Source: Mycobacteriales bacterium (GTDB lineage: Bacteria; Actinomycetota; Actinomycetes; Mycobacteriales; SCTD01). From it: a DNA stretch of 34,233 bases. The stretch's first letter is position 1; every line of letters starts with the position of its first letter. Of this stretch, positions 594 through 25,235 are shown in pieces. The notes beneath the pieces were generated by a model. It was not told the origin of the DNA. It was given only the letters and a program-made list of their open reading frames with translations, and ran no database searches. The position numbers were made by a program, and so were the translations under genes. The stretch is taken from assembly GCA_046596735.1 (NCBI GenBank), contig JBKJLP010000269.1, positions 1 through 34,233 of the forward strand. Direction: 5' to 3'.

Positions 594-1601
594 TTACCCG
601 CTTCGGCGGATCTCGAGAGAGACCACCGCCGTGCGCGTCTGCCCAGGGGCGAAGTGCACGACCGTCCCGGACGCTCGTGCAGCACCCAGCCCCGCCCCGG
701 GATAACTCGCCGCCGGCTCCACCGCGAGCACATAAGCCCTTTGGTACCAGGGAAATCCGACCGTCCCCGCCGCCTCGCACCAGAACCAGGCGTACGGAAA
801 GATCGCCAGGTCCCAGCGGACGGTTGCGGTGAGACCCAGACGCGGGTTGGTGATCGCGTACCAGGGCTCGGTGAAGTCCAGCAGATAGCCGAAGCGGTCT
901 AACCCGGCGTCGGAGCCCGGGACGCGTCCCAGGTCGACCTCGCTGCCGTCTTTGGTCTGCGCACGAGGCCACGGACTGCGCGCGCCGGGGGTGAGGTCAC
1001 CGTGTGGGGTGTCGTAGTCGCTGTCGGCCAGGAAGGTTTTCGCGCCGGTCTCGATCGTGCACTCGCGATCGAGGAACGGCGCGCCGAAGGCGGGGTGGTG
1101 ACTCCACATGGCTTCCTGTTCGGTCCCAGCCTCGTTGGTGAACGACTCGGTGACCGTGACGCGCCCGCCCAGAACGTCAATGCGTCGACGGAGCCGAAAG
1201 GGACTGCGGACCAAGCAGGTCGTGAGTTCAACAGCCACGCCGGCAGCTACGTCTACGTGCTGCCAGTCCCACGGCGCCAGGGTGGCTTCGCCGTGGAAAC
1301 CGAGCCGCGCACCTTGCTCGTCCGTCTCCGTACCGCCGTTAGGGAAAAGGGTCTGCCACCCACCGGGGTAGTTCTCCAAAAAGGCGGTCTGGCTGTCGGC
1401 TGCGGTGGGGACAGCTCCTTTGTGCCGCAGCCCCCAAGGTGTCTGCCAGAGAACGTCTGTGCCGTCCGCGCACCAGCGCACCGCGAGGATGTCGCCACCC
1501 TTGCCTGGCACCACCTCAACCTGGAGCAACTCGGTACTGAGACGCACCACGTCCCAGCCGCGGTGCGTCAACACCTCCACCGAGGACCGCTTGTCCGTCA
1601 C
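594..1601 (-). CDS. Aldose 1-epimerase / galactose mutarotase-like protein (DUF4432-like)
   Basis: The C-terminal 336 codons of the 459-aa ORF look like a mutarotase-fold protein (LQVEVVPGKGGDI, FHGEATLAPWDW, MWSHHPAFG). I chose the GTG at 1601 as the start; an AGGGA sequence lies about 10 nt upstream. The longer N-terminal extension is Arg/Ser-rich junk that overlaps a better small gene in another frame. Confidence 0.65.
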   Translation of the reverse strand: MTDKRSSVEVLTHRGWDVVRLSTELLQVEVVPGKGGDILAVRWCADGTDVLWQTPWGLRHKGAVPTAADSQTAFLENYPGGWQTLFPNGGTETDEQGARLGFHGEATLAPWDWQHVDVAAGVAVELTTCLVRSPFRLRRRIDVLGGRVTVTESFTNEAGTEQEAMWSHHPAFGAPFLDRECTIETGAKTFLADSDYDTPHGDLTPGARSPWPRAQTKDGSEVDLGRVPGSDAGLDRFGYLLDFTEPWYAITNPRLGLTATVRWDLAIFPYAWFWCEAAGTVGFPWYQRAYVLAVEPAASYPGAGLGAARASGTVVHFAPGQTRTAVVSLEIRRSG

Positions 1602-1624
1602 GGCGTCATCATCCCTGCGGTCAC

Positions 1625-1816
1625 TCAGCGACGAAACAGCGACACGAACCTGCCCCGTTGTTTCGCGACCACCGGGGTATCGGACGATGCGGACGTTCCG
1701 CTGGCACACGTGCACTGCTGCGCCTTCGGGACACCCTGCATGACCTGGGCGACGTGCGCCCCGCACCCCGACCAGGTGGTCTTGCCGCACTTTCGGCATT
1801 TCGCCTTGCTGCACAT
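1625..1816 (-). CDS. Small (63 aa) cysteine-rich protein, probably metal-binding; unknown function
   Basis: An internal ATG of the 102-aa ORF is preceded by a GAAGGGA Shine-Dalgarno sequence. The product is MCSKAKCRKCGKTTWSGCGAHVAQVMQGVPKAQQCTCAS..., with six Cys arranged C-x4-C-x2-C-x7-C-x16-C-x-C. Third codon positions are almost all G/C, unlike the overlapping frame. Confidence 0.55.
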   Translation of the reverse strand: MCSKAKCRKCGKTTWSGCGAHVAQVMQGVPKAQQCTCASGTSASSDTPVVAKQRGRFVSLFRR

Positions 1817-1969
1817 GCCAGTCCCTTCGTTGGTTACTCCTGCTTGGGGCGATCCGGTCACGCCAGGCTGAGGAACAGCTTTTCCCTCTGCGCGACGTCC
1901 AACTCTGCGGCGTCGCCCTCCTCGAGCAGACACTGCTTGAGACCACTCGCCACGATCGGCCGCGGACGC

Positions 1970-3106
1970 TCACAGCTCGCGCGGCACGTCCAGGAGGGCG
2001 CGTGTGAGCCCTCGCACGAAGCCACGCCCATAGCTCATCTTCTCCTCATAACCCTTGCCGAACGGCAGCGGAAGGTAGCCGTGGTACTCCGGAGCCAGGC
2101 CGGCGAGCAGCGCCCGATCATCACGCGCGCGCTCGATCTGGCGACCGAGCTCGTGGAACGCCTCCCCCGGCACGGACACGAGCCGGACTCCGCCCAGGGA
2201 CCACTCGAGGAGCTCGACCGGCACCGTGCGCAGGGCCACCCTGTTGAGCAGGGCGGGCAAGGTCAGGCCTGCCCGCAGGGGGACGACGCGGCGGGGCAGG
2301 AGGTGCGCGGTATCGGGGAGCTGCTCGCAGCCGGCCTCGAGCAGGGTGCTCACGCAGTCAGCCACCTCCGACCCGAGCACCTCGGCGGTCTCCCAGTTGC
2401 CGCCGACGTCAGGGTCGGTGTGCGGGTCGCGACGCGGGTTGACGTCGCCGAGCGCGCCTTGCAGCAGGACAGCCGGAGCGCCCGTCCGCTGCTCGAGGTG
2501 CGCGCGGTACGTGGAGACCCAGTCGCCGGACACCTCGCGGCAGGTGACACCCAAGGCGACCGGATGGATGCCGACGCCGCCGATGCTGCCGAGCCGACTG
2601 CCGTCCGGGCGCCGTACGTCGAGCACCGAGAAGGACGGGTCGTAGGGCAGGCCGCGCCTATTGAGGGAGAGCTCGGCGGGCAGGGGGGAACGCGCGTAGG
2701 CCAGGGTCGCTGGTGAGCAGCTGGCGACCGCACCACGTACGGCCGCGAGGCAGCCGTCGACGAGGCGGTCGAGGTAGTCCGGCGGCATGGGCCACAGCCG
2801 ACGGACCGCGGCCGTCGCTGCAGGGCCGGAATGCGTGTGGGTGCACGACGTCATCACGTGCTCCGGCGCGATCCCTAGCTCGCGGCCGACGGCCCGGCGG
2901 AGCGGACCGGCGACGTCTGCGCCCAGCATGAGCAGGTCGAGGACGAGCAGGCACAGGCTTGTCGAGCCGGACCGCACCAGCACCGCCTGGGCGAGCAGGT
3001 CGTGCCGCACGCCCGTGGCGGTTCCCTTGCGGTCGCCGAACCCCGCCAGGACGAACGGCAGGTCAGGGGTAATGACCCCCTCCCCGAAGCCCACCTGGAC
3101 CGGCAC
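1970..3106 (-). CDS. Neutral/alkaline ceramidase N-terminal-domain-like amidohydrolase; cytoplasmic (no signal peptide)
   Basis: GTG start with an AGGAGG sequence 7 nt upstream. The pattern GEGVITPD...GFGDR...GVRHDLLAQAVLV...LVLDL...SCTHTHSGPA matches the Zn-site region of the neutral ceramidase family. Confidence 0.65.
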   Translation of the reverse strand: MPVQVGFGEGVITPDLPFVLAGFGDRKGTATGVRHDLLAQAVLVRSGSTSLCLLVLDLLMLGADVAGPLRRAVGRELGIAPEHVMTSCTHTHSGPAATAAVRRLWPMPPDYLDRLVDGCLAAVRGAVASCSPATLAYARSPLPAELSLNRRGLPYDPSFSVLDVRRPDGSRLGSIGGVGIHPVALGVTCREVSGDWVSTYRAHLEQRTGAPAVLLQGALGDVNPRRDPHTDPDVGGNWETAEVLGSEVADCVSTLLEAGCEQLPDTAHLLPRRVVPLRAGLTLPALLNRVALRTVPVELLEWSLGGVRLVSVPGEAFHELGRQIERARDDRALLAGLAPEYHGYLPLPFGKGYEEKMSYGRGFVRGLTRALLDVPREL

Positions 3107-3160
3107 AGCGACCTCCTGCGATCACGAGCTGGGGACTGGCCCGTTGCCCTCGGTTCCACT

Positions 3161-3185
3161 AGTTTGTCATCGACCACTACTTATC
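3161..3185 (+). promoter_or_regulatory. Copy 1 of the shared bipartite motif (AGTTTG-tcatcgaccac-TACTTATC), upstream of the GH172 operon
   Basis: An AT-rich element in the 104-nt divergent intergenic region. It ends 25 nt before the GTG at 3211 and has the same spacing and orientation as the copies at 10117, 20755 and 20825. Confidence 0.5.
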
Positions 3186-3210
3186 TCTACAGGCTGGGAG
3201 GTGAGGCGAC

Positions 3211-4869
3211 GTGCCGTACGTCGGCGCTCACCTCGCCCGCCTTCGGCCGGGGGTGCAACGGCGCCGAGCGTCGACCTGGGACCGCAGCGGCGGCAACGAC
3301 GACTACCTGACCCTCGCAGCGGGTGCGACCTGCGTGCTGGCGCAGGACAACGGACCCGGCCAGATCACCCACCTGTGGTTCACCGTCGCCACCGCCGACC
3401 TGTGGTGGGGACGCAGCCTGGTGATCCGGGCCTACTGGGATGGCGAGCAGTCCCCGTCGGTCGAGGCACCGCTCGGCGACCTGCTGGGCGCCGGCAACTG
3501 CCTCACGTCGACCTACTCCTCGGCGATGTTCGCGGCCGCGCCGCGCGACGGGCTGTCACTCCACTCGTGGTTCCCGATGCCCTACGCGGACGGCTTCCGG
3601 CTCACCGTCACCAACGACGGCCCGCTGCCGGTGCCGGCGCTGTACGCCCACGTCGACTACGAGCGGTGGCCCGCGCCCGACCCGGAGTTGGGCCGGTTCC
3701 ACGCCTGGTGGAACCGGGAGCGCCGCACACCTCCCCCGCAGCCGGCCGGCGCCTCCGCACCCGGCGTCAACCTGACAGGCGCTGACAACTACCTGCTGCT
3801 GGGGGCCGAAGGCCGCGGGCACTACGTCGGGGCGGCGCTCTACGTCCACTCGGCCGACGGCGGCTGGTACGGCGAGGGAGACGACATGGTCTTCGTCGAC
3901 GACGACACGTGGCCCCCCTCACTGCACGGGACCGGCACCGAGGACTACTTCGGCACGGCTTGGTCGCCGGCGACGGCTTTCTCCCATCCCTACTACGGTC
4001 AGCCGATCGCGGACCGCGAGGACTGGGCCGGCTTCTCCAGCCTCTACCGGCTCCACGTGCCCGACCCAGTCCCCTTCGAGCGACGGCTACGAGCCACCCT
4101 CGAGCACGGGCACGCCAACGACCGTGCTGACGACTGGTCGTCCGTCGCCTACTGGTATCAGCGAGACCGCACGACCGCACTCCCCTCGCTCCCCCCCATG
4201 CCCGACCGCGAGCCGCCGTGGCCCCCGGACTGGCAGTCCAGGGTCCGCACCATCCATGCGCTCTACGGCGCGGAGTTGGTCGGACCAGAGCCCGACCCGC
4301 TCCGGCAGAGCCGCTTTCAGACCGGCGTGCGCTACCTCACCCGCGCAGCGCACGACCGAGATGGAGCGGCCGTCGACCGCGCACTGGAATGGCTCACCGG
4401 CCGCCCGCAGCAGCACAGCCCGCCGCGAGCCACCCCCGCGCCCGGCCCCCTCGCACCGCTTGTCCACAGCGACGACGACGCCCTCGCCGACTGGGTGGGC
4501 GGCCAGCCAGCAGACGCGCTGCTGGAGGCGGTGGCGAACGACTGGAGCGCGCGCTTCGACGCTGCCGCTGCGGGCGAAGCACGCCTGACGGTGGGGCTGC
4601 GCCTGCTCGCCGACCCTGACGGTCCGGGTCGGCAGCTCCTCGTCGCTGCCGGGCACTGCACCGTGCGAGCCGCCGGCGGTGGCCCCGAGCGGCTCACCGT
4701 GCTCGGTGCGCCACTCGCGCTGGTCCGCTGGTCGCTGGGCCGCCTCGACCCATGGGAGGCCCTACTGCGGGGCGACCTCGTCGTACGCGGCGATGGTGAC
4801 CTCGGACTGCGGCTGGTCGCGCTCTTCCCGCCGTACGCGCTCGACCCCGACCTGCGCGCAGGAAGCTGA
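3211..4869 (+). CDS. GH172 (DUF2961) family glycosidase fused to a C-terminal SCP2 / sterol-carrier-like domain
   Basis: GGGAGG Shine-Dalgarno sequence before the GTG start. DUF2961 hallmarks are present: GPGQITHLWF and GGWYGEGDDMVFVDDD...LHGTGTEDYFGTAWS. The last ~110 aa (LTVLGAPLALVRWSLGRLDPWEALLRGDLVVRGDGDLGLRLVALFP) follow the SCP2 pattern. There is no signal peptide. Confidence 0.7.
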   Translation: MPYVGAHLARLRPGVQRRRASTWDRSGGNDDYLTLAAGATCVLAQDNGPGQITHLWFTVATADLWWGRSLVIRAYWDGEQSPSVEAPLGDLLGAGNCLTSTYSSAMFAAAPRDGLSLHSWFPMPYADGFRLTVTNDGPLPVPALYAHVDYERWPAPDPELGRFHAWWNRERRTPPPQPAGASAPGVNLTGADNYLLLGAEGRGHYVGAALYVHSADGGWYGEGDDMVFVDDDTWPPSLHGTGTEDYFGTAWSPATAFSHPYYGQPIADREDWAGFSSLYRLHVPDPVPFERRLRATLEHGHANDRADDWSSVAYWYQRDRTTALPSLPPMPDREPPWPPDWQSRVRTIHALYGAELVGPEPDPLRQSRFQTGVRYLTRAAHDRDGAAVDRALEWLTGRPQQHSPPRATPAPGPLAPLVHSDDDALADWVGGQPADALLEAVANDWSARFDAAAAGEARLTVGLRLLADPDGPGRQLLVAAGHCTVRAAGGGPERLTVLGAPLALVRWSLGRLDPWEALLRGDLVVRGDGDLGLRLVALFPPYALDPDLRAGS

Positions 4870-4878
4870 GGAGTCACC

Positions 4879-6186
4879 ATGGCTGCACCCACCTGGCTCG
4901 CCGCGATCGAGGGCTTCTACGGCCCGCCCTTCACCCACGAGGAGCGGCTGGACCTCCTGCGCTGGCTGCCTTCGGCGGGGCTGACCGATTATGCCTACGG
5001 CCCCAAGGACGACCCGTTCCACCGCGACCACTGGCGCACGCCCTACCCGGCGGGGCACCTCGAGCAGTTCGCGCAGACGCTCGCCGTTGCCCGGGAGAGC
5101 GGCGTCGAGCTCACGCTGTCGATCTCACCGGGGCTGGACTGGGCCGGGGCGCCCGACCACGAAGCGCTGGTCGCCAAGCTCCGGCAGCTCTACGACCTAG
5201 GGGTCCGCTCGCTTGGCGTCTACTGGGACGATGTGGCCCCCGGTGGCGCTGACCTCGGCAGCTCGCACGGCGCGGGCGTCGCCGCGGCAGTGAGCGGGCT
5301 GCCCGACGACGTCCGCTGGCTGACCTGCGGCACGGACTACGCCACGACCTACGCGACCCCGTACCTCGCCGCCTTCGCCGCCGTCCTGCCGCCAGAGGTC
5401 GCGATCGCGTGGACCGGCCCGTCCATCACGAGCCCTGACGTTCCGGCGGACGTCGCCGCCCGCCTGGCCGAGGAGCTCGGTCACCCCTTGCTCCTCTGCG
5501 ACAACTGGCCGGTCAACGACCTAGGGATGTCCGCCGTGCTGCACCTGGGTCCGGCGCCGTATCGCGAGCCGGCACTGCGCCACGCGGTCGCCGGGGCAGG
5601 GTTCAACATGATGAGCCTGCCGCTCGCGAGCCGCCCCGGGCTGGAGCTGGCCGCCCGCCACTGGCGAGACCCCGTCGAGGATCGAGAGGCAGCGTGGAGC
5701 CGGGTCATCGCCAGCACGCCCGGTCTGCTACCGCTGGCGCGGGCCTGCCGTTCGTGGCTCACCGAGCCGGGACCCGACGCGGAGCTCGCGTCCTGGGTCG
5801 CACCGGGGCTCGCCGGCGACGACCGGCTCCTGCGGTTCCTCGAGGCCGGCTGCCGGCAGGACCTGCCGACCGCGTGGCAGGCAGAACTCGAGCCATGGCT
5901 GGCCTGCTGGGAGGCGGAGGCTCACCTCGCTGCCGGTGTGCTGCGGGTCCTGCGCGACCCAGCCGCCGTTGCCGATGCCCCAGACCTCGGGGTCGACTGG
6001 CCGCGCCTGCACCGGGCCGACCGGCAGGTCTTCGGGATCCGGTTCGCCGTCTACGGCGTGTCCTACCGGGTCGAGGACCGACTGCTCCCCCATCCGGACA
6101 GCGTCGTGCGCGGCGACAACCTCACCGACCTCGTGGTCACCGGGGCTTTGCGCGCCCTGCACGCGGGCGCTCAGGCGCACGGATGA
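4879..6186 (+). CDS. GH84 beta-N-acetylglucosaminidase (O-GlcNAcase/NagJ-like); cytoplasmic
   Basis: GAGGAG Shine-Dalgarno sequence. The sequence IEGFYGPPFTHEERLDLLRWL...YAYGPKDDPFHRDHWRTPYP and the catalytic Asp-Asp in GVYWDDV are GH84 signatures. Confidence 0.8.
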   Translation: MAAPTWLAAIEGFYGPPFTHEERLDLLRWLPSAGLTDYAYGPKDDPFHRDHWRTPYPAGHLEQFAQTLAVARESGVELTLSISPGLDWAGAPDHEALVAKLRQLYDLGVRSLGVYWDDVAPGGADLGSSHGAGVAAAVSGLPDDVRWLTCGTDYATTYATPYLAAFAAVLPPEVAIAWTGPSITSPDVPADVAARLAEELGHPLLLCDNWPVNDLGMSAVLHLGPAPYREPALRHAVAGAGFNMMSLPLASRPGLELAARHWRDPVEDREAAWSRVIASTPGLLPLARACRSWLTEPGPDAELASWVAPGLAGDDRLLRFLEAGCRQDLPTAWQAELEPWLACWEAEAHLAAGVLRVLRDPAAVADAPDLGVDWPRLHRADRQVFGIRFAVYGVSYRVEDRLLPHPDSVVRGDNLTDLVVTGALRALHAGAQAHG

Positions 6187-7382
6187 CGAGCATGTCCACT
6201 CCGCCCTACGGCGACGCCAGCCGTCCAGTTCTCCTCACGACGCACCTGATAGGAGACGTCAACCGGTCGCGGGTGCTGCAGGCACTCGTGGACAACGGCC
6301 CGCTGAGTCGCGCTGACCTCGCCCGGCTGGCCGGTGTCCCGCGCGCCACCATGGGGACCATCGTCCAGGCGCTGCTCGACGCCGGGTTGCTGGAGGAGGG
6401 CGACCATCACCGAGACGGGCGGGTCGGCAAGCCCTCCCGACCGCTCTGGTTCGGCCCGCGGGCCGGACTGTCGGTCGCCGTCGCCTTCGACGACACATCG
6501 GTCCGCGGGGCGCTGGTGAGCGCCCGCGGTGAGCGGCTGGACGACGTTAGGCTGCCGCTGGCCACTGCTGACGCCTCGTCGAAAGCCCTGCTCAAGACGC
6601 TTAAAGAGGTCGTTACTGCCGTCCTCCCGAAAGGGGAGGCAGTCATGGGCATTGGCATCGCCGTACCTGGCGTCTGCAACACACCGGCCGGGGAGGTCGT
6701 CGGCTCGGGGCAGCTGCCCGGTGCCGTAGGGACACAGATCACCCAGTCCTTGGCGAAGGCGTTCGCGGTCCCCGTGCTCGTCGACAACGACGCCCGGGCC
6801 CAGGCCCTCGGCGAGCGGTGGTTCGGCGACGGCCGTGGCACGGCGACCTTTGCCTCCCTCCAGACCGGCACGGGGCTCGGGGTGGGACTGGTGCTCGACG
6901 GGCGGCTGTTCCGGGGCGAGGACGGGCGCGTCGGCGAGCTCGGGCACACGCAGGTGGTGCCCGGCGGTGACCGCTGCCGTTGCGGGCTGCGCGGCTGCTG
7001 GGAAACGGTGGCCACCCTGCCGTGGCTGCGCGCCGAAGCCCGCGGTCGCCGGCTGCCCGACGCGAGCCACACCACCACCGCCAGTCTCACCGCGTCGGCG
7101 ACCCCCGCTGCCATGGGGCTGCTCGCGGACTACGCCACCAACCTCGGCGCGGGTCTGTCGTCGTTGGTCAACCTCCTCGGAGTCCGGCGGATCATCGCTC
7201 ACGGAGACATCCTCGGCGGCGGCGAGGCGATGCGACTGCGTGTGGAGGATGCGGTTCGCGAAGCCTCCCTCGGCTACCTGCGATCGGAGGTCACCCTCAC
7301 CTTCTCCGAACTCGCGGCAGACGCCACGGTCACCGGGGCGGCAGCGCTCGTGCTGTCGGAGACGTTCCGGCTCGCGGCATGA
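6183..7382 (+). CDS. ROK-family transcriptional regulator (NagC/Mlc/XylR type)
   Basis: The ATG overlaps the GH84 stop (ATGA). The N-terminal winged helix-turn-helix (wHTH) is NRSRVLQALVDNGPLSRADLARLAGVPRATMGTIVQALLDAGLL. The ROK sugar-binding core carries GELGH...CRCGLRGCWETV. The upstream part of the 562-aa ORF is a GC artefact. Confidence 0.8.
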   Translation: MTSMSTPPYGDASRPVLLTTHLIGDVNRSRVLQALVDNGPLSRADLARLAGVPRATMGTIVQALLDAGLLEEGDHHRDGRVGKPSRPLWFGPRAGLSVAVAFDDTSVRGALVSARGERLDDVRLPLATADASSKALLKTLKEVVTAVLPKGEAVMGIGIAVPGVCNTPAGEVVGSGQLPGAVGTQITQSLAKAFAVPVLVDNDARAQALGERWFGDGRGTATFASLQTGTGLGVGLVLDGRLFRGEDGRVGELGHTQVVPGGDRCRCGLRGCWETVATLPWLRAEARGRRLPDASHTTTASLTASATPAAMGLLADYATNLGAGLSSLVNLLGVRRIIAHGDILGGGEAMRLRVEDAVREASLGYLRSEVTLTFSELAADATVTGAAALVLSETFRLAA

Positions 7383-10141: not shown

Positions 10142-10154
10142 CAGGGAGGTCGCC

Positions 10155-14196: not shown

Positions 14197-14218
14197 CGTC
14201 CGATCCTTTCGCGTCCGG

Positions 14219-15859: not shown

Positions 15860-15878
15860 CGTGCGACCTCCGGGTACG

Positions 15879-17912: not shown

Positions 17913-19903
17913 GCTGTCGCCTCTGCCCTGGCGGCGAGGCCACTCGTCGCACCAGCCAGGTCGACCTCAGCGTTGACGCGCACAGCGATGTCGTCCCTGG
18001 GGTCGACGCCGGTCACCTTCGTGGCGAGCAGGTCGCGGCCAGCGAGGAGCGGGCGGATCAGGCCGCCGGGCAGGAACAGGAGCAGGACGAGGAGACCGAC
18101 GCCCGTGGAGAGAAGGCTGATCACGGCCGCTTGGTGCGGGAAGACCTGCGAGGCGAAGTACTGCACCGCGAAGATGTAGGTCCCCCCGATGAGCGCTCCG
18201 GACAACGAGCCGAGGCCCCCGATGACCGCGGCAGCCAGCAGCGCGAGCGAGTTGACCGGGGGGAAGCTCGCCGGGTCCCCGGAGCCGATGGCGTCGACGA
18301 ACAGGAAACCCGCCGCGCCAGCCATCATCCCGGTGATCGCGTAGGCGGTGAGCTTGGTCCGCACCACGGAGATCCCCATGGAAGCGGCTTGCACGGGGTT
18401 CTCCTTGACCGCCCGGATGGCGCGCCCGAGTTGCGAGGCGTCGATGAGGCGTGCGCTCCCGAGGACGACCGCGAGGAGCACGAAGGCACAGACGTACTGC
18501 ACGTTGGTCGTCATGTAGGTCGGTAGGCGCAGGTTCTGACCCGGCTTGATCCACGACTGCTGGAACAGCCAGGACGTGCACGTGACGGCGAACGCCAGCG
18601 TGACGACCGCCAGGTTGACCCCCTGCAGCCGGAGCGCGGGCAGTCCGACCAGAGCGGCGGCGATCCCGCCGACGACCACGGCGACCAGGAACGCCAGCCA
18701 GAAGGGAACTCCGAGCACGGCGTAGGCGCGCACTCCCACCAGACCCCCGAGGCCGGCCACGGCCCATTGGCCGAGGGAGAGCTGTCCGGCCCATCCGGTG
18801 AGGATGGTCGCGGAGACCACGGCAGTGCACAGCAGGACGGTGGCCGCCACGAAGTAGGTGTTGTGGTCAGACAGCAGCATCGGCAGGACCACGACCGCGC
18901 CCACACCCAGGCACTGTCCGAGGAAGCGCAGGTTCGACCAGCGCGGGTCGCTGGCGATGCGCGCCGCGAGCGGACGGATCGGCTCTCCGGTGTCCGGCGC
19001 GGACTCCGCGGCGCTCGAGGCCTGCCGCAGCAGGTCCTTGCGGGTCAGGAGCACGGCGACGACCGCGACGAACAGCACCAGGTCGGTGAGTCCGGACTGC
19101 CCTGTCCAGACGAAGATGCACTGATCGGCCACGCCGAGCGCCAAGCCCACTCCGAACGCCACGCCCACCGATGAGAGCCCGGCGATGGTGGCTGCCGCCA
19201 GACCTCGGAACAGCAGCGACAGCCCGACGGCGGGGTCAGAGGAGTAACCCACGACGGGGGCAAGCAGGATCGCCGCAACGGCCGAGAGCAGTGCCGCCAG
19301 CACCCACGCCAGCGTCGACACGCGGCGGACCGGGATGCCCAGCAGCCGCGCGCGCTGGGCGTTCTCGGCGGAGGCCCGCAGGGCGATGCCGTACGGCGAC
19401 CAGCGGAGGAAGACGAACAGCGACGCCGCGACGATCGGGCCGATGACGAGCACCAGCAGGTCACCGGTGTGGAACACGACCCGACCGAACGACACGGGCG
19501 CGACGTCGAACGGCAGCGGGAAGGTGGCAGCGCCCCCGAAGACGACGTCGTCGCCGCCCTGGGTCTTGGGCTTAGGGATGCCCGCCCGACCAGCCGTGAT
19601 GATCTGCGACACCCCGATCGTCGCGATCAGGACGATCAACCGAGGACTGGCGAAGAGCCGCCGGATGACGGTCAGCTCGATCAGCGCACCGACCGCCGCA
19701 GTCGCGAGCAGCGCGCAGGCCAGCGCCGCCACGTAGGGGAAGTGCGCGCGGTTGGTCAGGGAGAACATCATCGCGACGGCCAGGGCACCGAGCTCGCCCT
19801 GGGCCAGACTGATGGAGCGGTTGGACATGTAGATGAGGACGATGCCGGCCGCGAGCAGGCCGTTGGCGACGCCGAAGACGAGGCCCTGCAGGACGATGTC
19901 CAC
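17909..19903 (-). CDS. Fused LivH-LivM branched-chain-type ABC permease
   Basis: The GTG overlaps the livG-like stop (TAGTG). The N-terminal half is LivH-like (GLVFGVANGLLAAGIVLIY, LAQGELG). The C-terminal half is LivM-like (TILTGWAGQLSLGQWA). Confidence 0.8.
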   Translation of the reverse strand: MDIVLQGLVFGVANGLLAAGIVLIYMSNRSISLAQGELGALAVAMMFSLTNRAHFPYVAALACALLATAAVGALIELTVIRRLFASPRLIVLIATIGVSQIITAGRAGIPKPKTQGGDDVVFGGAATFPLPFDVAPVSFGRVVFHTGDLLVLVIGPIVAASLFVFLRWSPYGIALRASAENAQRARLLGIPVRRVSTLAWVLAALLSAVAAILLAPVVGYSSDPAVGLSLLFRGLAAATIAGLSSVGVAFGVGLALGVADQCIFVWTGQSGLTDLVLFVAVVAVLLTRKDLLRQASSAAESAPDTGEPIRPLAARIASDPRWSNLRFLGQCLGVGAVVVLPMLLSDHNTYFVAATVLLCTAVVSATILTGWAGQLSLGQWAVAGLGGLVGVRAYAVLGVPFWLAFLVAVVVGGIAAALVGLPALRLQGVNLAVVTLAFAVTCTSWLFQQSWIKPGQNLRLPTYMTTNVQYVCAFVLLAVVLGSARLIDASQLGRAIRAVKENPVQAASMGISVVRTKLTAYAITGMMAGAAGFLFVDAIGSGDPASFPPVNSLALLAAAVIGGLGSLSGALIGGTYIFAVQYFASQVFPHQAAVISLLSTGVGLLVLLLFLPGGLIRPLLAGRDLLATKVTGVDPRDDIAVRVNAEVDLAGATSGLAARAEATA

Positions 19904-20733
19904 TACGCCCCCACGACGGCTGCGCCGGAGCGGTTGATCGCCGCCAGGTCATCGCCCAGGTAGGAGGCGATGACCCGCGGATCCCGTACGACGTCGTCCG
20001 GAGGGCCGGACAGCACGACGGACCCTGTCTCCAGCGCGTAGAGGCGGTCGGAGATCCCCATCAGCAAGGGCATGTCGTGCTCGATCACGAGGACGGCGGC
20101 ACCGGTCTGCTCGCGGATCCGGACGATCAGCGGTCCCAGGGCCTCGGCCTCGCGCTGCGCGATGCCGGAGGAGGGCTCGTCGAAGAGAATGACCGACGGC
20201 CGCTGGATGAGCAGGCAGCCGAGGTCCACGACCCGTCGCGTGCCGGTGCTGAGCTCGCGGATGAACTTCCCGGCGTACGACGTCAGGCCCATCAGCTCGA
20301 TCATCTCGTCTGCGGCGGCGAGGGCGGCCTGCTCGGCCCGACGAGAGGCCGGGCTACCCGGCACCCTGGCCGTCCAGCCCAGGTCGTGCAGCGCGAGCTC
20401 CGACGCCGTGCGCAGGGTGTCGCGCACCGTCATGGACGGGTAGAGCCGGGCGTCCTGATAGCTGCGGCCGAGGCCGGCGGCGGCCCGCTCGTGCGGCGCC
20501 ATGCTGGTCAGGTCGGTGCTACCGAGGCTCACCTGACCACGGCAGGGCAGGTGCCCGGTGATGCAGTCGAACAGAGTGGTCTTGCCTGCCCCGTTGGGCC
20601 CGATGATCCCGACGATCTCGTGGGGCAGCACGTCGAGAGACACGCCCGCCAGAGCCCGGACACCGCCGAAGGAGACGGCGATGTCGCGCACGGCGAGGGC
20701 AGGCGCGACCGCGCTCCTCGCTCCATGGACCAT
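19903..20733 (-). CDS. LivG-like ABC ATPase
   Basis: GGAAGGG Shine-Dalgarno sequence. It has Walker A GPNGAGKTT, LSTGTRR, Walker B ILFDEP and an IASYLG C-terminal tail. Confidence 0.85.
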   Translation of the reverse strand: MVHGARSAVAPALAVRDIAVSFGGVRALAGVSLDVLPHEIVGIIGPNGAGKTTLFDCITGHLPCRGQVSLGSTDLTSMAPHERAAAGLGRSYQDARLYPSMTVRDTLRTASELALHDLGWTARVPGSPASRRAEQAALAAADEMIELMGLTSYAGKFIRELSTGTRRVVDLGCLLIQRPSVILFDEPSSGIAQREAEALGPLIVRIREQTGAAVLVIEHDMPLLMGISDRLYALETGSVVLSGPPDDVVRDPRVIASYLGDDLAAINRSGAAVVGA

Positions 20734-20754
20734 CGATGACCCTTCCGCGTTCGG

Positions 20755-20779
20755 AATAAGTAGTAAACGCCTGCAAATA
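20755..20779 (-). promoter_or_regulatory. Copy 3 of the shared bipartite motif (minus strand: TATTTG-caggcgtttac-TACTTATT), facing the ABC operon
   Basis: It ends 21 nt before the ATG at 20733. It forms a divergent pair with copy 4 in the same 128-nt AT-rich intergenic region. Confidence 0.5.
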
Positions 20780-20824
20780 GGTCGCCGTCAAGGGCCTTGC
20801 ACCCCTCTTGACAGCCTCCCGACT

Positions 20825-20849
20825 TATTTGCAAGAGTTGAATACATATC
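20825..20849 (+). promoter_or_regulatory. Copy 4 of the shared bipartite motif (TATTTG-caagagttgaa-TACATATC), facing the secreted-protein/oxidoreductase operon
   Basis: It ends 12 nt before the ATG at 20862. A TTGACA at 20808-20813 ends 17 nt before the end of TATTTG (16 nt in copy 2). Confidence 0.5.
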
Positions 20850-20861
20850 TGGAGGAGCAGC

Positions 20862-22537
20862 ATGCGCGGCACCCTGACAGCCTTGTCCCTCGCGTTGGCG
20901 ATCGCACTTGCCGGCGGCCTCGGTCTCGGCGCACCCGCGACAGCGCAAGACCGATTGCTCGCCGCGCCGCACTGCATCGGGCCGCTCGCCTGCGGTGCTG
21001 ACGCCGAGATGGCCGAGCTCCTCGAGCACAAGATGGCCGACCACCTCTGGTACGGGCTGTCGCTGCCCATCGACTACGGGACAGCGGATCGGATCCCCGG
21101 GGACGTGACGCGCATCGGCCCGGCCTGGGGCGACGCCGGCCTGTGGAGCGGTGCCTACCTGGGTGCGGAGTCCTACCGCTACGCCCTGGCGAAGGCCAAG
21201 GTGACCGGAGGCGAGCAGCCCGGCAGGTGGAAGAAGGAGCAGGCGGCAGCGAAGGCTCGCATCGACGACCTGCTCTCGCAGATCGACCTGCGCACCAACA
21301 TCGCACGTCCTGGCAGACCCGTTTCTCGCCCTCTGTCGGCTCGGGCACCCCGCCGACCGTCAGCTTTGGCGGTGGCCTGGTGGCCGGGCAGAAGGGGATG
21401 CTGATGTACTCCTGCGCCCCGGCGGACGCGCCGCCCGGCCGCAACATGGACCCGAGCCCCGACGTACGAGGACCCTGGACGTGGAAGGGCGTTGGGCGGC
21501 CGGCACGACTGGCTCAGCCCGACGACGACTACGTCTGCGAGGCGTCCACGACGCGCGACACCTACGCCGGCGTCTTCTTCGGCCTGCTGACGGCGTTCGA
21601 CCTCGTGGCACCTGACGACGCCGAGGTCCGCGACCTGATCCGCGACGACATCCTCGCCATGGCTGACTTTCTGCTCGCCTACGGCTGGAACTACGCCCAC
21701 CCGCATGGCGACGTCAACGTGCCACCGTTCGGCGACGTCTACGACAACAGCGTGACGCCCATCATGATCATCTCCCCGGTCTACCGCCTCGGGATCTCGC
21801 AAGCCGCGCTGCACGTCGCCAACGTCGCCGGGCCCAGCGACGAGGCGACCAAGTGGCAGGCCGTCTACACCGAGGAGCTGGCCACCCAGCTGCCGAGCGA
21901 TGTCATCGCCGAGGAGGTCAACGACCCCTCCCCCACCGCGGGCTACTTCGGGTGGAACCTCGCCCACCTGATGTTCTCGTCGCTCATCCGGCTCGCTGCC
22001 GGGGACCCCGTGGTCAGCGAGGTGGCCCGCCGCAACTTCAGCATCGTCGACCGGCAGACCTCCGACGACGACAACGCCTGGTTCGAGAGCGTGACCTACG
22101 CGATGGGCGGTGAGCCAGGTCGTCTCGACAAGGCGCTCACCCACCTTCGCGCTTGGCGTGATTACCGAGCCAACACCGACCTGGGTGGGGTCGTTGACGC
22201 CCGGGCTGCGTGCGGCAGCACCCGCGCTTGCGTCCCGGAGGACGAGTACGACGTCATCGTCGACACCCCGGCCGGGGAGCGCCGCACCACCGTCAAGGGC
22301 TCGTCCTCGACCTTGCGTGCCGTCGAGCCGGTGCCCGTCGCGGAGCGCGCGCCGCAGGACTTCCTGTGGCAGCGCTCGCCCTTCACCGACATCACCGGCT
22401 CCAGCGCCGTCACGCACGAGGAGCCCGGGATCGACTACCTGCTCCCTTACTGGATGCTCCGCTACAACACCGAGGTCGCTCCGCCGGCCCTCGACCCGCT
22501 GCCCGTCTACGCCGGCCCGCGCTACAGCGGCACCTGA
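20862..22537 (+). pseudogene. Secreted protein of unknown function (~558 aa if restored), interrupted by a -1 nt frameshift near 21303-21308
   Basis: GGAGGAG Shine-Dalgarno sequence. The signal peptide is MRGTLTALSLALAIALAGGLGLGAPATAQ. By hand count, G/C at third codon positions is about 90% in the 20862 frame up to ~21303, then falls to about 58%. The 21143 frame rises to about 90% from ~21305 onward. Confidence 0.55.
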
Positions 22538-22553
22538 CCGAAGGACCTACACC

Positions 22554-23603
22554 GTGCGCAGGATCGGACTCGTCGGCACCGGCCTCATGGGCGACCACCA
22601 CCTGTGGGCGCTCCAGCGCCTGCGCGCAACCGGGCTCGTGGACGCGGAGGTCGTGCTGGTCCACGACCTCGACACCGCCCGGGCCGAGGCCTTCGGCGCC
22701 GCGCACCAGGTCGGAGTCGCCGCCGGCCTGGACGACCTCATCGCCCAGGTCGACGTCGTCTGGATCACGACCTGGACCGCCGGGCACCTCGCCCCGGCGC
22801 GGGCGGCCGCTGCGGCGGGGAAGGCGGTCTTCGTCGAGAAGCCCCTGGCGCCGACCCTGGCGGAGTGCGAGGAGCTGGCTGACGTGCTGCGCCCCGTTCC
22901 GCACCAGGTCGGGCTGATCCTGCGGCACGCGCCGGCCTACCGACTGCTGCGCCAGCTGCTCGTCTCCGGCAACTACGGCCGGCCCATGGGCGTGATGTTC
23001 CGCGACGATCAGCGCTTCCCGCTGGACGGGCCATACGGCTCGACGTGGCGAGCTGACGTCGCGAGGGCCGGCGGCGGGACGCTCATCGAGCACTCCATCC
23101 ATGACGTCGACGTGCTCGCCTGGTTGCTGGGCAGCCCCGTGGTCGTGTCGGCCCACACAGCCAGCTTTGCCGGGACCCCCGAAATCGAAGACCTCGCCAT
23201 GCTCCGCCTCGACTTCGCCGAGGGTCACAGCGCCTCGCTGATGTCGGTCTGGCACCAGGTCGAGGAACGGACCGTTGCTCGCCGGCTGGAGGTGTTCTGC
23301 GAGCGCGGAGTCTTGTCCATGGACGGGGAGGTCGGCCCGGTGCGCGTCCAGACCTCCGCCGGGACCACTGAGCACGAGACGCCCTTCCCGGCCGAGCTCG
23401 CGGCCCTTGGCCTGCACGAGGTCCCCGAGCGCTGGCGCGACGCTGCCGGTGGTCTGGCACTGCAAGCCAAAGCTTTCCTCGACAGCCTCGACGCGGGCAA
23501 GCCCGGCTGGCCGTCCGTCGACGACGCCCTGATTGCCCACCGGCTCGTCGACGCGGCCTACCGCTCCGCAGCCGGCGGCGGCGCCTCGGTCCGCGTCACA
23601 TGA
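22554..23603 (+). CDS. Gfo/Idh/MocA-family NAD(P)-dependent oxidoreductase
   Basis: GAAGGA Shine-Dalgarno sequence before the GTG. The Rossmann start is IGLVGTGLMG, and EKPLA and the C-terminal alpha/beta domain are present. The upstream part of the 497-aa ORF is an artefact. Confidence 0.8.
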   Translation: MRRIGLVGTGLMGDHHLWALQRLRATGLVDAEVVLVHDLDTARAEAFGAAHQVGVAAGLDDLIAQVDVVWITTWTAGHLAPARAAAAAGKAVFVEKPLAPTLAECEELADVLRPVPHQVGLILRHAPAYRLLRQLLVSGNYGRPMGVMFRDDQRFPLDGPYGSTWRADVARAGGGTLIEHSIHDVDVLAWLLGSPVVVSAHTASFAGTPEIEDLAMLRLDFAEGHSASLMSVWHQVEERTVARRLEVFCERGVLSMDGEVGPVRVQTSAGTTEHETPFPAELAALGLHEVPERWRDAAGGLALQAKAFLDSLDAGKPGWPSVDDALIAHRLVDAAYRSAAGGGASVRVT

Positions 23604-24199
23604 CTGCGCTCGTCTTCGGCTGGATCGGGACGGTCCTGATCGTCTCCTTCAACCTCCCCCAGGTGTGGCGCACCTGCGTCCGGGGGCTCGCGTCCGGCGT
23701 GCCCTCATCGCGGGCCTGGGTCGCCATCGCGGTGGCCACGCTGTGGCTGGGATACGGCCTGGCCGGCGGCGGCGTGATCCAGGTGGTCCTCAACAGCGCC
23801 ACGATCGCCCTGAACGTGCTGCTGCTCGCCGGCCTGCGGGCCATCACAGAGCGGCGCGGACTGCTGCTGGTCGCCGTCGCGGCTGTGCTGACGTTCGTCC
23901 TGGTCGAGCAGGGTGGGATGGCCGCGGTCGGCCTCGTAGGGGCTGTCGTCGGCGCGGCGGTCTACGTGCCGCAGCTGCTCGCTCTGCGACGGTCCGGCCC
24001 CGTTGACGGCGTGTCTCGGCTCGCCTTGGTGCTCCAGCTGGCCAGCGGCCTGTGCTGGCTGCTGTACGGCGGACTACGCGGGGAGACCGTCGTGTGGGCG
24101 CCCAACGTCGTGGTGATCATCACGACGGCCTGGACGATCCTGTTGCTGCCCCGACAACCGACCCGACGCGATGCTGCCGAGGTCCCGGCCTATGCCTGA
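23600..24199 (+). CDS. 7-TM membrane protein with two PQ-loop / SemiSWEET-like repeats (SWEET-like 3+1+3 topology)
   Basis: The ATG overlaps the preceding stop (ATGA). Repeat 1 is SFNLPQVWR...LWLGYG...NSATIALN. Repeat 2 is VYVPQLLALRR...CWLLYG...APNVVVI. One extra hydrophobic helix lies between the repeats. Confidence 0.6.
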   Translation: MTALVFGWIGTVLIVSFNLPQVWRTCVRGLASGVPSSRAWVAIAVATLWLGYGLAGGGVIQVVLNSATIALNVLLLAGLRAITERRGLLLVAVAAVLTFVLVEQGGMAAVGLVGAVVGAAVYVPQLLALRRSGPVDGVSRLALVLQLASGLCWLLYGGLRGETVVWAPNVVVIITTAWTILLLPRQPTRRDAAEVPAYA

Positions 24200-25235
24200 G
24201 CCGACCCCAGTCCACGGTCAGGTCGGATGGGCGATCTGCGGCACTGGCGGCATCGCCGCCACCTTCGCTCAGGCCCTGCGCCGGGTCGACGGTGCGCGTC
24301 TCGTCGCCGTCAGCTCGCGCGCGCAGGATCGCGCAGACCAGTTCGCCCTAGCCCAAGGGGCCCAGCGTGCCTACGGCTCGCTCGACGCGTTGCTCGCAGA
24401 CCCGGCCGTGGACGTCGTCTACGTCGCATCCCCGCACTCCGAGCACTGCCGGGAGGCGCTGCAGGCGGTCGAGGCTGGCAAGCACGTCCTGGTGGAGAAG
24501 CCCTTCGGCTTGTCACTCACCCAGGTCGAGCCGGTGCTGGCTGCCGCCGAGGCCCGGGGGGTGTTCGTCATGGAAGCGCTCTGGTCGCGCTTCCTCCCGG
24601 CCTACGTGCGGCTTCGTGAGCTGGTGGCATCCGGCGCTATCGGTACGGTGCTTGCCGTGGAGGCTGGCTTCGGCTTCGCCGCGCCCTACCTGGCTACGCA
24701 TCGCATCTACGACCCTGCCCTCGGCGGTGGAGCTCTGCTGGACCTCGGCATCTATTGCCTCGACGTCGCCGTACAGCTGCTCGGGCCCCCCGCTCACCTC
24801 AGCGCCCAAGCGGTGCTCTGCCCGACCGGGGTCGACGTCAATACGTTGCTCGCTTTGCGATGGGAAGGGGGCGCTGTCGCCTCAGCGCACTGCTCGTTCA
24901 CGACCCCGCTGCCCGGCACCGCCCGCGTGGTCGGAACTGAGGGGTGGATCGAGCTGCCGCAGACCTTCCCCGACACGCTGGTGCTCCACCAGCAGCGCGG
25001 CACAGACGACGTGGAAGCCGCCGTCACCGTCCTCGACATCCCGGTTGGTGGTGACGGCCTGCGCTACCAGGTGGAAGAAGTCCACCGATGTCTCGCCGAC
25101 GGCCGCACCCAGAGCGAGACCATGTCCTGGCAGCACACCCGCGACCTGATGGCGACCCTGGACCGCGCGCGTGCGGCGTTCGGCTTGGTCTACCCGCACG
25201 AGCAGGCGCCGGACACTTTCGGTCCCGCGTCCTGA
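24192..25235 (+). CDS. Gfo/Idh/MocA-family oxidoreductase (dihydrodiol / sugar 1-dehydrogenase-like)
   Basis: I chose the ATG at 24192, which has a GAGG sequence upstream and overlaps the 3' end of the preceding gene. An alternative ATG lies at 24171. It has WAICGTGGIA, HVLVEKPF and GGALLDLGIY. Confidence 0.8.
   Translation: MPEPTPVHGQVGWAICGTGGIAATFAQALRRVDGARLVAVSSRAQDRADQFALAQGAQRAYGSLDALLADPAVDVVYVASPHSEHCREALQAVEAGKHVLVEKPFGLSLTQVEPVLAAAEARGVFVMEALWSRFLPAYVRLRELVASGAIGTVLAVEAGFGFAAPYLATHRIYDPALGGGALLDLGIYCLDVAVQLLGPPAHLSAQAVLCPTGVDVNTLLALRWEGGAVASAHCSFTTPLPGTARVVGTEGWIELPQTFPDTLVLHQQRGTDDVEAAVTVLDIPVGGDGLRYQVEEVHRCLADGRTQSETMSWQHTRDLMATLDRARAAFGLVYPHEQAPDTFGPAS

Follow-up and report, generated by a model that had tools for sequence, protein, structure and literature searches.

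A putative ROK-controlled regulon of uncultured Actinomycetota with a proposed role in scavenging a complex glycoconjugate

Introduction

ROK-repressed amino-sugar regulons of the NagC/Mlc type, such as the E. coli nag regulon and the Streptomyces csnR-K cluster for chitosan oligosaccharides, are generally known to combine several traits: a helix-turn-helix (HTH)-ROK regulator gene situated within the genes it regulates, an AT-rich operator of ~23 nucleotides (nt) with a partial dyad in divergent promoters, a separate ROK kinase together with NagA and a deaminase, and import followed by the action of a cytoplasmic exo-glycosidase. The same traits are found or predicted in a gene module on a contig of a Mycobacteriales bacterium (GenBank assembly GCA_046596735.1, contig JBKJLP010000269.1), of which the whole analyzed stretch of 34,233 nt is called the window here. 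The module differs from those regulons in its importer, which is of the Liv/HAAT type with an ATPase fused to a major facilitator superfamily (MFS) domain, where the ROK amino-sugar regulons use a phosphotransferase system (PTS) or a CUT1 sugar ABC transporter. It also differs in its enzymes, since a glycoside hydrolase family 172 (GH172) protein fused to an SCP2 domain, a ceramidase-like protein (CerLike), an ADP-ribosylglycohydrolase-family enzyme (ARH), and a secreted protein (Sec) are unrelated to the use of chitin or chitosan.

Two other kinds of described system come close. An ARH enzyme, a sugar kinase, and an importer are encoded together in the E. coli yegTUV locus and in Bacteroides ribose systems, as they are in the window, although the window has another type of transporter and extra hydrolases. 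The GH172 catalytic domain is shared with the D-arabinan systems of Dysgonomonas gadei (PUL42) and Mycosynbacter amalyticus (PMC10115798) and of Microbacterium arabinogalactanolyticum (PMC10509167). The layout is shared as well: in the M. amalyticus model, release outside the cell is followed by import and cytoplasmic cleavage (PMC10115798), and an extracellular enzyme, uptake, and a cytoplasmic GH172 are likewise encoded in the window. In addition, Sec has the GH116 exo-beta-D-arabinofuranosidase 8ic6 as one of its weak toroid matches. Unlike the D-arabinan systems, however, the window contains no GH183 (Pfam and NCBIfam scans), GH116, or GH142 enzyme, and its GH172 is fused to SCP2, paired with CerLike, and accompanied by enzymes for N-acetylglucosamine (GlcNAc) and by ARH.

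By analogy, the logic of the module resembles both the ROK-repressed amino-sugar regulons and the release-import-cleave model for D-arabinan, while its transporter type and enzyme sets differ. It is a regulated catabolic locus of unusual parts, including two protein families without known function. An earlier note, made from the letters of this DNA alone, proposed import and intracellular dismantling of an acylated, GlcNAc-containing glycoconjugate and knew of no characterized pathway with this combination of genes. The literature that we searched bears this out: no published description of the gene combination, of a GH172-SCP2 fusion, or of an MFS_1+LivF fusion was found.

Results

Operator-like motif and transcription units

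A 23-nt motif, ATTTG-N9-AMTACWTAT, occurs in four copies in the window, versus 0.01 expected in a search allowing 2 mismatches, and all four are confined to the three divergent promoter regions of the module. The motif is AT-rich within a region of 70% G+C. It was first spotted by reading the intergenic regions and then tested by search; a generic long-repeat search of the window gave only chance matches in coding DNA. The sites, with their counterparts in two related loci (L006, a close relative, and L005, from a Mycobacteriales metagenome-assembled genome [MAG] whose proteins are 53 to 78% identical), and the gene of the regulator are as follows.

3162-3184 (+): site O1, between CerLike and GH172-SCP2; identical site in L006
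10118-10140 (+): site O2, between nagA and the ROK kinase operon; same-promoter match in L005 (16024-16046) and L006
20756-20778 (-): site O3, in the divergent region, nearer to livG; equivalent in L005 at 4324-4346
20826-20848 (+): site O4, 14 nt upstream of the Sec gene start; the L005 site lies directly upstream of the Sec orthologue (5699-5721)
6183-7382 (+): ROK-family regulator, MarR-type HTH plus ROK (Pfam matches MarR_2/HTH_20 and ROK)

The three sites of L005 thus stand at livG/GH84, upstream of Sec, and at ROK-kinase/nagA. All seven sites of the window and L005 have ATTTGYA...TACWTAT in common and form an imperfect dyad. This is the form of an operator for a dimeric HTH regulator, and we regard the motif as a putative operator. 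We infer that the obvious candidate for binding it is the ROK-family regulator, whose start (ATGA) overlaps the GH84 stop and whose gene lies inside the GH172 operon. The HTH comprises residues 190 to 243 and the ROK domain residues 267 to 554, in the numbering of the long open reading frame (ORF). The best NCBIfam models are NagC (135 bits; cut-off, 650) and Mlc (134 bits; cut-off, 530), and by these scores the protein classifies as a NagC/Mlc-like regulator but no orthologue of either.

The window has ~70% G+C, and genes were called by third-position G+C content (GC3), since the plain ORF list consisted mostly of spurious ORFs; GC3 also exposed noncoding 5' parts of several long ORFs. Called genes were checked against Pfam and NCBIfam, and start codons were refined from stop/start overlaps. 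All gene families named in the earlier note were recovered where it had placed them, and the motif by which it had linked the two uptake modules held up in the search; its list did not include the regulatory role of the ROK protein, the binding protein, or Sec. The module spans 1970-25235 (~23 kb) and has six transcription units.

3106 to 1970 (-): unit a, CerLike alone
3211 to 8191 (+): unit b, GH172-SCP2, GH84, HTH-ROK regulator, and alpha/beta hydrolase 1
10107 to 8162 (-): unit c, NagA and alpha/beta hydrolase 2
10155 to 13143 (+): unit d, ROK protein without HTH, SIS protein, and ARH protein
20733 to 13150 (-): unit e, LivG, LivH+LivM fusion, MFS_1+LivF fusion, 546-amino-acid (aa) membrane-anchored protein, and lipoprotein
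20862 to 25235 (+): unit f, Sec, Gfo/Idh/MocA 1, PQ-loop protein, and Gfo/Idh/MocA 2

The last three starts of unit b overlap the preceding stop or sit 9 nt 3' of it, and the junctions of unit d are all overlapping GTGA.

Conservation of the gene set

Module genes co-occur, in shuffled order, in at least 10 distinct contigs of uncultured Actinomycetota. Loci of GH172 genes were scanned with one genome per species, which gave 9 fused and ~70 unfused loci. Only the fused loci carry other module genes; the ~70 unfused ones have nothing beyond weak matches (23 to 30%) to generic LivG-type ATPases and one Gfo match of 31%. L006 is collinear from CerLike onwards, with GH172 95% identical and the module genes ~90% identical, and 18 of the 21 module proteins recur in L005, where both the order and the orientation of the genes differ. 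Other loci hold overlapping subsets. L002 and L013 share GH172-SCP2, a hydrolase, CerLike, the ROK regulator, and the ROK kinase, to which L002 adds GH84, NagB, and NagA and L013 adds ARH. In L014 and L012/L086, GH172-SCP2 occurs together with Liv-type ABC genes and Sec, and in four loci (L004, L009, L011, and L087) the divergent CerLike/GH172-SCP2 pair is all that is present.

Starting from the Sec family instead, we found Liv-type ABC genes in eight of nine distinct Sec contexts. The MFS-LivF fusion is intact in five of these (L005, L014, L090, L091, and L092), and in L089 the MFS and ATPase parts were called separately. Most contexts also hold a Peripla_BP_6 homologue of the 546-aa binding protein, and they often include ARH, ROK, GH84, a hydrolase, Gfo, or CerLike. 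Sec paralogues cluster with GH172 and Liv ABC genes, and in L086 four of them flank GH172. L092 has an operon of ARH, a PfkB kinase, a 310-aa protein, and Sec; L090 has an operon of a DegT aminotransferase, Gfo, and CerLike; and in L086 a DegT-type aminotransferase lies beside the binding protein. The most constantly linked components across genomes are Sec, the Liv-type importer, and, in several loci, ARH.

Because the operator-like motif is shared and the gene set is conserved, we read the module as one conserved regulon and not as chance neighbors, probably repressed by its own ROK-family regulator. That the genes form one functional unit, as the earlier note supposed, gains weight from the retention of the motif in a diverged relative and from the co-occurrence of the genes in rearranged order in many contigs.

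GH172-SCP2 and its divergent partner CerLike

3211-4869 (+): GH172 (double jelly-roll; DUF2961) with a predicted C-terminal SCP2 (sterol/lipid carrier) domain, no signal peptide
1970-3106 (-): CerLike, predicted truncated zinc amidase of the neutral-ceramidase fold, 378 aa (Pfam, AlphaFold2 [AF2] model, Foldseek)

The GH172 domain matches DUF2961 (PF11175) with 260 bits against a cut-off of 27, and the precomputed GH172_1st, dom, and 2nd domains are present as well. Its PDB matches are 4kq7 (E = 2e-79), DgGH172c 8ah3 (E from ~1e-75 to 3e-75), and alphaFFase1 7v1v (E = 6e-67). The motifs WYGEGDDM and GTGTEDYF align with their counterparts in these three structures, and all 31 fused homologues compared keep residues E222, D224, E244, and D245. 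alpha-D-Fructofuranosidase is reportedly an equally known GH172 activity. The exo-alpha-D-arabinofuranosidase activity of DgGH172c is reported in PMC10115798.

The earlier note had called the C-terminal tail an SCP2 domain. In the window protein, the tail scores 19.2 to 20.3 bits, below the PF02036 cut-off of 21.3; among homologous tails, 22 of 23 match PF02036 (best, 1.6e-7), and the tail profile matches the solved SCP2 structures 1c44, 2c0l, and 1ikt with E from 3e-6 (1c44) to 3e-5 (1ikt). These matches confirm the assignment at the family level, while the window's own tail stays below threshold. SCP2-fused GH172 proteins make up a small clade, found only in uncultured Actinomycetota.

CerLike is encoded divergently from the GH172 operon. 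The Pfam Ceramidase_alk N-terminal domain matches it with 36.5 bits (cut-off, 32.1), covering the first 155 residues only, and phmmer against the PDB gave a best E of 0.25. An AF2 model from 44 homologues has a pLDDT of 94.9, and Foldseek places it with the neutral ceramidases of P. aeruginosa (2zws; E = 5.8e-25, TMq 0.84) and human (4wgk; E = 5e-24), at TM values of 0.81 to 0.84 and 14 to 18% sequence identity. Invariant in the 44 homologues are H90 and H92 (H90-T-H92), H181, G220-D221-V222-x-P224, E315, and Y344/Y353, a set that resembles the zinc-site pattern of ceramidases and may correspond to it. The known neutral ceramidases (P. aeruginosa 2ZWS/2ZXC and human 4WGK) share the catalytic-domain fold with CerLike, but they are secreted proteins of 630 to 670 aa with a C-terminal domain, whereas CerLike has 378 aa, is predicted to be cytoplasmic, and lacks that domain. 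Because this domain is absent and the score against the NCBIfam equivalog NF041649 is 17.8 bits (cut-off, 1200), CerLike appears to be no orthologue of ceramidases, and its substrate may differ from ceramide. For the fold, the earlier ceramidase-like label stands. From the model, CerLike is predicted to be a minimal, cytoplasmic, ceramidase-fold metallo-amidase. Its family comprises 395 homologues, all from uncultured Actinomycetota.

Enzymes for GlcNAc and other cytoplasmic hydrolases

4879-6186 (+): GH84 beta-N-acetylglucosaminidase, O-GlcNAcase (OGA)-like, predicted cytoplasmic (NAGidase PF07555, 209.7 bits; cut-off, 25)
9010-10107 (-): NagA, GlcNAc-6-phosphate deacetylase (TIGR00221, 237.1 bits; cut-off, 225.65)
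10155-10883 (+): ROK protein without HTH, 242 aa, sugar kinase candidate (ROK_glcA_fam; NanK-type matches subthreshold)
10880-11824 (+): SIS-domain protein (GlmS C-terminal/NagB-II type), glucosamine-6-phosphate deaminase candidate (SIS, 72.5 bits)
11821-13143 (+): ARH (ADP_ribosyl_GH PF03747, 119.6 bits; cut-off, 26.2)
7379-8191 (+): alpha/beta hydrolase 1, predicted cytoplasmic (Abhydrolase_1, Hydrolase_4), conserved in L005, L006, and L014
8162-9022 (-): alpha/beta hydrolase 2, predicted cytoplasmic (Abhydrolase_6/_1), conserved in L002, L005, L006, L013, L091, and L092

The best solved relative of GH84 is the OGA of Thermobaculum terrenum (5diy; E = 2e-42), which is like the window protein in size, in having its catalytic domain from the N terminus, and in lacking a signal peptide. 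The motif YWDD (YWDDV) aligns with YWDDI of C. perfringens NagJ, and we take its DD to be the catalytic Asp-Asp pair. Unlike the cytoplasmic bacterial O-GlcNAcase homologues, the window GH84 shares a catabolic operon with NagA and a kinase, and the window encodes no O-GlcNAc transferase.

Both ROK proteins bear on the ROK-like kinase of the earlier note: the protein at 10155-10883 remains a kinase candidate, adjoining the regulator in L002 and L013, and the one at 6183-7382 is better read as a regulator. The SIS protein lies below equivalog cut-offs (NagB_SO3506, 69.6 versus 430 bits; GlmS, 73.6 versus 418). The one hint at a deaminase role comes from L002, where NagA adjoins a classical NagB (Glucosamine_iso) and the examined stretch yielded no SIS homologue. 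Judged by their families, the ROK kinase and the SIS protein would, with NagA, complete a route from GlcNAc to fructose-6-phosphate. The ORFs scanned against Pfam and NCBIfam included neither a chitinase nor a GH20 enzyme nor a sugar ABC permease of the CUT1 type, and it is likely, as the earlier note held, that the substrate is not free GlcNAc or chitin.

The ARH translation shows the motifs EDDD and NDTDS by eye; a PDB sequence search gave no solved close relative, and the gene recurs in L005, L013, L090, and L092. The two alpha/beta hydrolase genes converge on opposite strands, and their 3' ends overlap by 30 nt (8162-8191).

The absence of signal peptides from the hydrolases, as the earlier note had it, is upheld: none has a hydrophobic N terminus (maximum Kyte-Doolittle 12-residue mean below 2.0), while the corresponding N-terminal means of the exported proteins (binding protein, lipoprotein, and Sec) are 2.4 to 2.7. 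From these profiles, the hydrolases are predicted to be cytoplasmic and the binding protein and Sec to face outwards.

The importer, Sec, and the oxidoreductase operon

19903-20733 (-): LivG-type ABC ATPase (ABC_tran + BCA_ABC_TP_C; LivG model, 203 bits)
17909-19903 (-): LivH+LivM fused permease (BPD_transp_2 in two stretches; LivH/UrtB and LivM/UrtC halves by NCBIfam)
15879-17912 (-): MFS_1+LivF-type ATPase fusion, 677 aa (MFS_1, 119.5 bits; ABC_tran, 97.5 bits)
14219-15859 (-): membrane-anchored Liv-type (Peripla_BP_6) binding protein, 546 aa, with an Ala/Gly/Ser-rich linker (by homology to L086)
13150-14196 (-): lipoprotein, last gene of the ABC operon, lipobox-like N terminus; found only in the close relative L006, weak membership
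20862-22537 (+): Sec, secreted protein of ~558 aa with a signal peptide and a predicted (alpha/alpha)6-toroid fold (AF2 of an orthologue)
22554-23603 (+): Gfo/Idh/MocA oxidoreductase 1 (best model IolG, far below cut-off), conserved in L005
23600-24199 (+): PQ-loop/SWEET-like membrane protein, 199 aa (PQ-loop PF04193, 34.7 bits; cut-off, 22), conserved in L005
24171-25235 (+): Gfo/Idh/MocA oxidoreductase 2, conserved in L005 and L090

With two permease halves, LivG and LivF ATPases, and a binding protein of Peripla_BP_6 type, the transporter is by family membership unambiguously Liv/Urt-like (HAAT family). Its substrate is not inferable from these matches, because it misses all equivalog cut-offs (LivF/G/H/M and UrtB-E). 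The best NCBIfam models of the MFS-LivF protein are LivF and UrtE, and the fusion is conserved in L005, L008, L014, and L090 to L092. In an exhaustive search, all 677 aa were matched end to end by well over 50 of the 150 best library clusters (50% identity), and a second MFS-LivF class of ~1000 aa came up as well. Going by these matches, the fusion is widespread and by no means confined to this locus.

The binding protein itself has no Pfam match, relaxed thresholds included, and no PDB sequence match. It is 44% identical (BLASTP) to the binding protein of L086, and tblastn gave homologues at 44 to 53% identity in L086/L012 and L089 to L092; the genes called at these places in L086 and L089 to L091 (514 to 532 aa) carry Peripla_BP_6. 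The lipoprotein has no family match in Pfam or NCBIfam at relaxed thresholds.

Sec belongs to a family of 147 homologues that all lack both a Pfam domain and an informative name, and Pfam and NCBIfam gave nothing at relaxed thresholds. The AF2 model of an intact orthologue, P0121, has a pLDDT of 91.4 and shows a toroid of the (alpha/alpha)6 type with a beta-rich part after it. We treat Sec as a new secreted family with a predicted glycosidase-like fold. In L005, another Sec paralogue, of 586 aa, is encoded at 17982-19742.

The PQ-loop protein also matches MtN3_slv (PF03083, 33.2 bits; cut-off, 23.7) and, below the cut-off of 200, SemiSWEET_1 (64.6 bits). Two PQ motifs (LPQVW and VPQLL) and seven hydrophobic segments were counted by eye; the topology is that of a full SWEET-like protein, not of the usual bacterial SemiSWEET with three transmembrane segments. 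The earlier note counted two uptake modules. The Liv-type importer stands, while the PQ-loop protein may not be a second importer, because its operon-mates are a secreted protein and two oxidoreductases.

Discussion

Because the layout comprises an exported enzyme, a binding protein, an importer, cytoplasmic hydrolases, a sugar funnel, and a repressor, we read the module as a regulon for substrate utilization. The reading that we rank first, and believe about as much as we doubt, is that it serves to scavenge a complex glycoconjugate, with a lipid- or acyl-bearing substrate in mind but including the form in which the substrate is left unspecified. A hydrophobic part in the substrate is suggested because of the SCP2 fusion and the ceramidase fold. 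Our best guess is an amphiphilic (acyl- or lipid-bearing) conjugate with GlcNAc and a D-furanoside, such as fragments of actinobacterial envelope glycolipids or lipoglycans. Of the acylated amino-sugar substrate in the earlier note, the acyl or lipid part thus draws support from CerLike and SCP2; the centrality of GlcNAc does not, and the substrate class remains a guess. Mycothiol or glucosaminyl-inositol was dropped as a substrate, as its alpha linkage does not fit GH84. Plant or fungal glycosyl inositol phosphorylceramide (GIPC) sphingolipids, hopanoid glycosides, tunicamycin-like nucleoside lipids, and Nod-factor-like lipochitooligosaccharides were also considered and not adopted.

The analysis shows the gene content, the split into cytoplasmic and exported products, the shared operator-like motif, the conservation of the gene set, and the folds. 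In the pathway that we infer, with its enzymatic steps, ROK repression, transport direction, and type of substrate, the Sec toroid protein would process or release the substrate outside the cell, and the anchored Liv-type binding protein would pass it to the ABC importer (LivG, LivHM, and the MFS-bearing LivF). In the cytoplasm, the hydrolases would then divide the substituents among them: GH172-SCP2 would cleave an alpha-D-furanoside off a hydrophobic aglycone, and ARH would remove a ribosyl-type furanoside, GH84 beta-GlcNAc, CerLike an amide-linked N-acyl group, and the two alpha/beta hydrolases ester-linked O-acyl groups. Freed GlcNAc would be phosphorylated by the ROK kinase, deacetylated by NagA, and deaminated by the SIS protein to fructose-6-phosphate, and the two Gfo/Idh/MocA enzymes could oxidize another freed sugar or cyclitol. 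A bolder version, which we think unlikely, has intact amphiphilic glycolipid or lipoglycan fragments imported by a dedicated HAAT-type ABC transporter with an MFS-bearing ATPase and dismantled in the cytoplasm, with a new (alpha/alpha)6 glycoside-hydrolase-like family acting outside and a lipid-guided GH172-SCP2 furanosidase and a CerLike N-deacylase inside; neighboring actinobacteria would supply the substrate in the form of envelope lipids with D-arabinofuranosyl or ribofuranosyl groups, or it would be a glycosyl-ceramide-like lipid. We know of no HAAT-type ABC transporter that carries lipids or glycans.

Several observations weigh against this picture. To our knowledge, the Liv/HAAT family serves amino acids, urea, and amides, not glycolipids. 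GH84, NagA, and GH172 are absent from the examined stretch of several loci that keep Sec, the ABC genes, and ARH, and because of this GlcNAc and the furanoside may be accessory and not central. In L004 and L087, the CerLike/GH172-SCP2 pair stands alone beside the housekeeping genes prfB-ftsEX-smpB. The Foldseek PDB matches of Sec to GH9, GH116, GH146, and GH100 toroids are nonsignificant (E of at least 0.012, TM of ~0.3), for which reason we place Sec in no GH family. The Sec gene is moreover frameshifted in the window by a 1-nt deletion at ~21306: the frame changes within 21296-21312, between ...DLRTNIAR and SWQT..., where one base of an Arg codon is absent compared with P0121, either through an assembly indel or in a recent pseudogene. 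A simple scan for sigma-70 promoters and terminators found nothing in the three divergent promoter regions. Lastly, because C-terminal elements of GH172 enzymes set quaternary structure (bioRxiv 10.64898/2026.08.13.744632), the SCP2 tail could, by analogy, serve assembly instead of lipid binding.

In a rival reading, the same regulon acts on small polar nitrogen-containing substrates, which would be amino acids or peptides with ribosyl or glycosyl groups, or pseudo-oligosaccharides of the aminocyclitol/aminoglycoside kind. We hold this explanation improbable while counting it as a serious contender. Here the HAAT transporter would take up the substrate, ARH, GH84, and GH172 would remove sugars, the amidase and the esterases/peptidases would remove acyl or peptide parts, and the Gfo/Idh/MocA enzymes, with the DegT aminotransferase in relatives, would convert an amino-cyclitol or amino-sugar core. 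The Liv/Urt-like transporter with its Peripla_BP_6 relatives is what one would look for in such a system, and the recurring core of Sec, ABC, and ARH and the DegT genes beside the binding protein (L086) or beside Gfo and CerLike (L090) point the same way, as does the match of both alpha/beta hydrolases to the S33 aminopeptidase model Hydrolase_4. Known substrates include GlcNAc-O-Ser/Thr for GH84 enzymes and ribosyl-Arg/Ser for ARH enzymes, and the ARH-PfkB-Sec operon of L092 resembles ribose-releasing loci, in which ARH enzymes are said to have been noted in a study of Bacteroides ribose utilization. A polar substrate leaves the MFS domain on the ATPase and the secreted toroid protein unexplained, however; the window itself has no aminotransferase; and the SCP2 fusion and the ceramidase fold indicate a hydrophobic moiety.

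It is also conceivable, if in our view quite unlikely, that the carriers recycle their own envelope, with CerLike and GH172-SCP2 trimming a lipid-linked D-arabinofuranosyl (or related) intermediate or turnover product and the ABC transporter recovering fragments and peptidoglycan GlcNAc. The solitary CerLike/GH172-SCP2 pair beside prfB, ftsEX, and smpB in L004 and L087 would suit this role, the carriers are labeled Mycobacteriales, Frankiales, or Actinomycetota MAGs, and Nocardia GH172 homologues act on arabinogalactan (PMC10115798). Yet D-arabinan production by the carrier lineages is not established, the Pfam and NCBIfam scans of the window gave no muropeptide enzymes (NagZ, AmpD, or an above-cut-off MurQ-type etherase) and no GH183 arabinan endo-enzyme, and repressor control and multiple secreted paralogues look more like nutrient acquisition. 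Very improbable indeed, we think, is that there is no single system, only independent operons for GlcNAc catabolism, branched-chain amino acid import, inositol-type oxidoreduction, and hydrolysis lying side by side. Each family is common on its own, gene order is not conserved, and many related loci hold subsets only; against this stand the AT-rich 23-nt motif in all three divergent promoters, kept at the promoters of L005, the persistence of the gene set through rearrangement, and the ~70 unfused GH172 loci with none of the other components save the weak ABC ATPase matches and one Gfo.

If scavenging of a complex glycoconjugate is the correct reading, the module would represent a route of nutrient or envelope salvage in abundant uncultured Actinomycetota of soil and groundwater. 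It would give a first functional context to the Sec family (147 members), the CerLike family (395 members), and the GH172-SCP2 and MFS-LivF fusions, as well as a context for bacterial ARH enzymes outside ADP-ribosylation signaling, and would add to the substrates known for HAAT-type ABC importers. It might also yield enzymes to analyze or degrade furanoside envelope glycolipids, including mycobacterial-type D-arabinan conjugates. The conserved operator-like motif and the compact layout of regulator and targets make the hypothesis testable by heterologous expression.

Neighboring genes and minor observations

594-1601 (-): DUF4432, mutarotase-like, 77.8 bits
25650-25724 (-): tRNA-Met, 3' of the module

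The earlier note had counted the DUF4432 gene as part of the system. We excluded it: there is no operator-like site nearby, it is absent from all related loci other than L006, and in L006 it is only 59% identical, versus ~90% for the module genes. There, 5.7 kb separates it from CerLike (an EAL fragment, an M20 peptidase, MazF, a GH25 lysozyme, and others). In the window, the first ~125 codons of the long ORF at 594-1973 are noncoding. A small Cys-rich ORF of ~60 aa (MCSKAKCRKCGKTTWSGCGAHV...; 1637-1828, -) lies between DUF4432 and CerLike in a stretch of ~370 nt of lower G+C; it has no family match in Pfam or NCBIfam at relaxed thresholds.

To the right of the module, 25769-34220 encodes UPF0182 (972 aa), a 189-aa protein without known function, a HAMP-PAS histidine kinase, a PDZ+Lon_C protein, and MoaE. 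The stretch 25650-34220 is an ordinary actinobacterial housekeeping neighborhood and marks the right edge of the module. Rfam gave a single tRNA and no riboswitch on the window.

Relatives of the module carry additional genes. Large phosphoesterase and beta-propeller proteins adjoin it in several relatives and are absent from the window: Metallophos+PQQ_2 proteins in L014 (13757-16201), L086 (3262-5433), and L091 (11572-13469), and a PF04185 phosphoesterase with a propeller in L013 (14767-18144). Their recurrence is a hint that the substrate contains a phosphodiester. Between the ROK kinase and SIS genes of L005 lies an additional gene for a CehA/McbA-type metallohydrolase (13848-15227, -; 70 bits, below the cut-off of 80). 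Toxin-antitoxin genes (BrnT/CopG, HigB/HTH_3, and MazF) occur in or beside the module in L002 (15809-16383), L085 (11889-12476), and L006 (5243-5569). In L013, three FAD amine-oxidase-like genes and a TetR regulator (739-8479) lie directly upstream of ARH-GH172.

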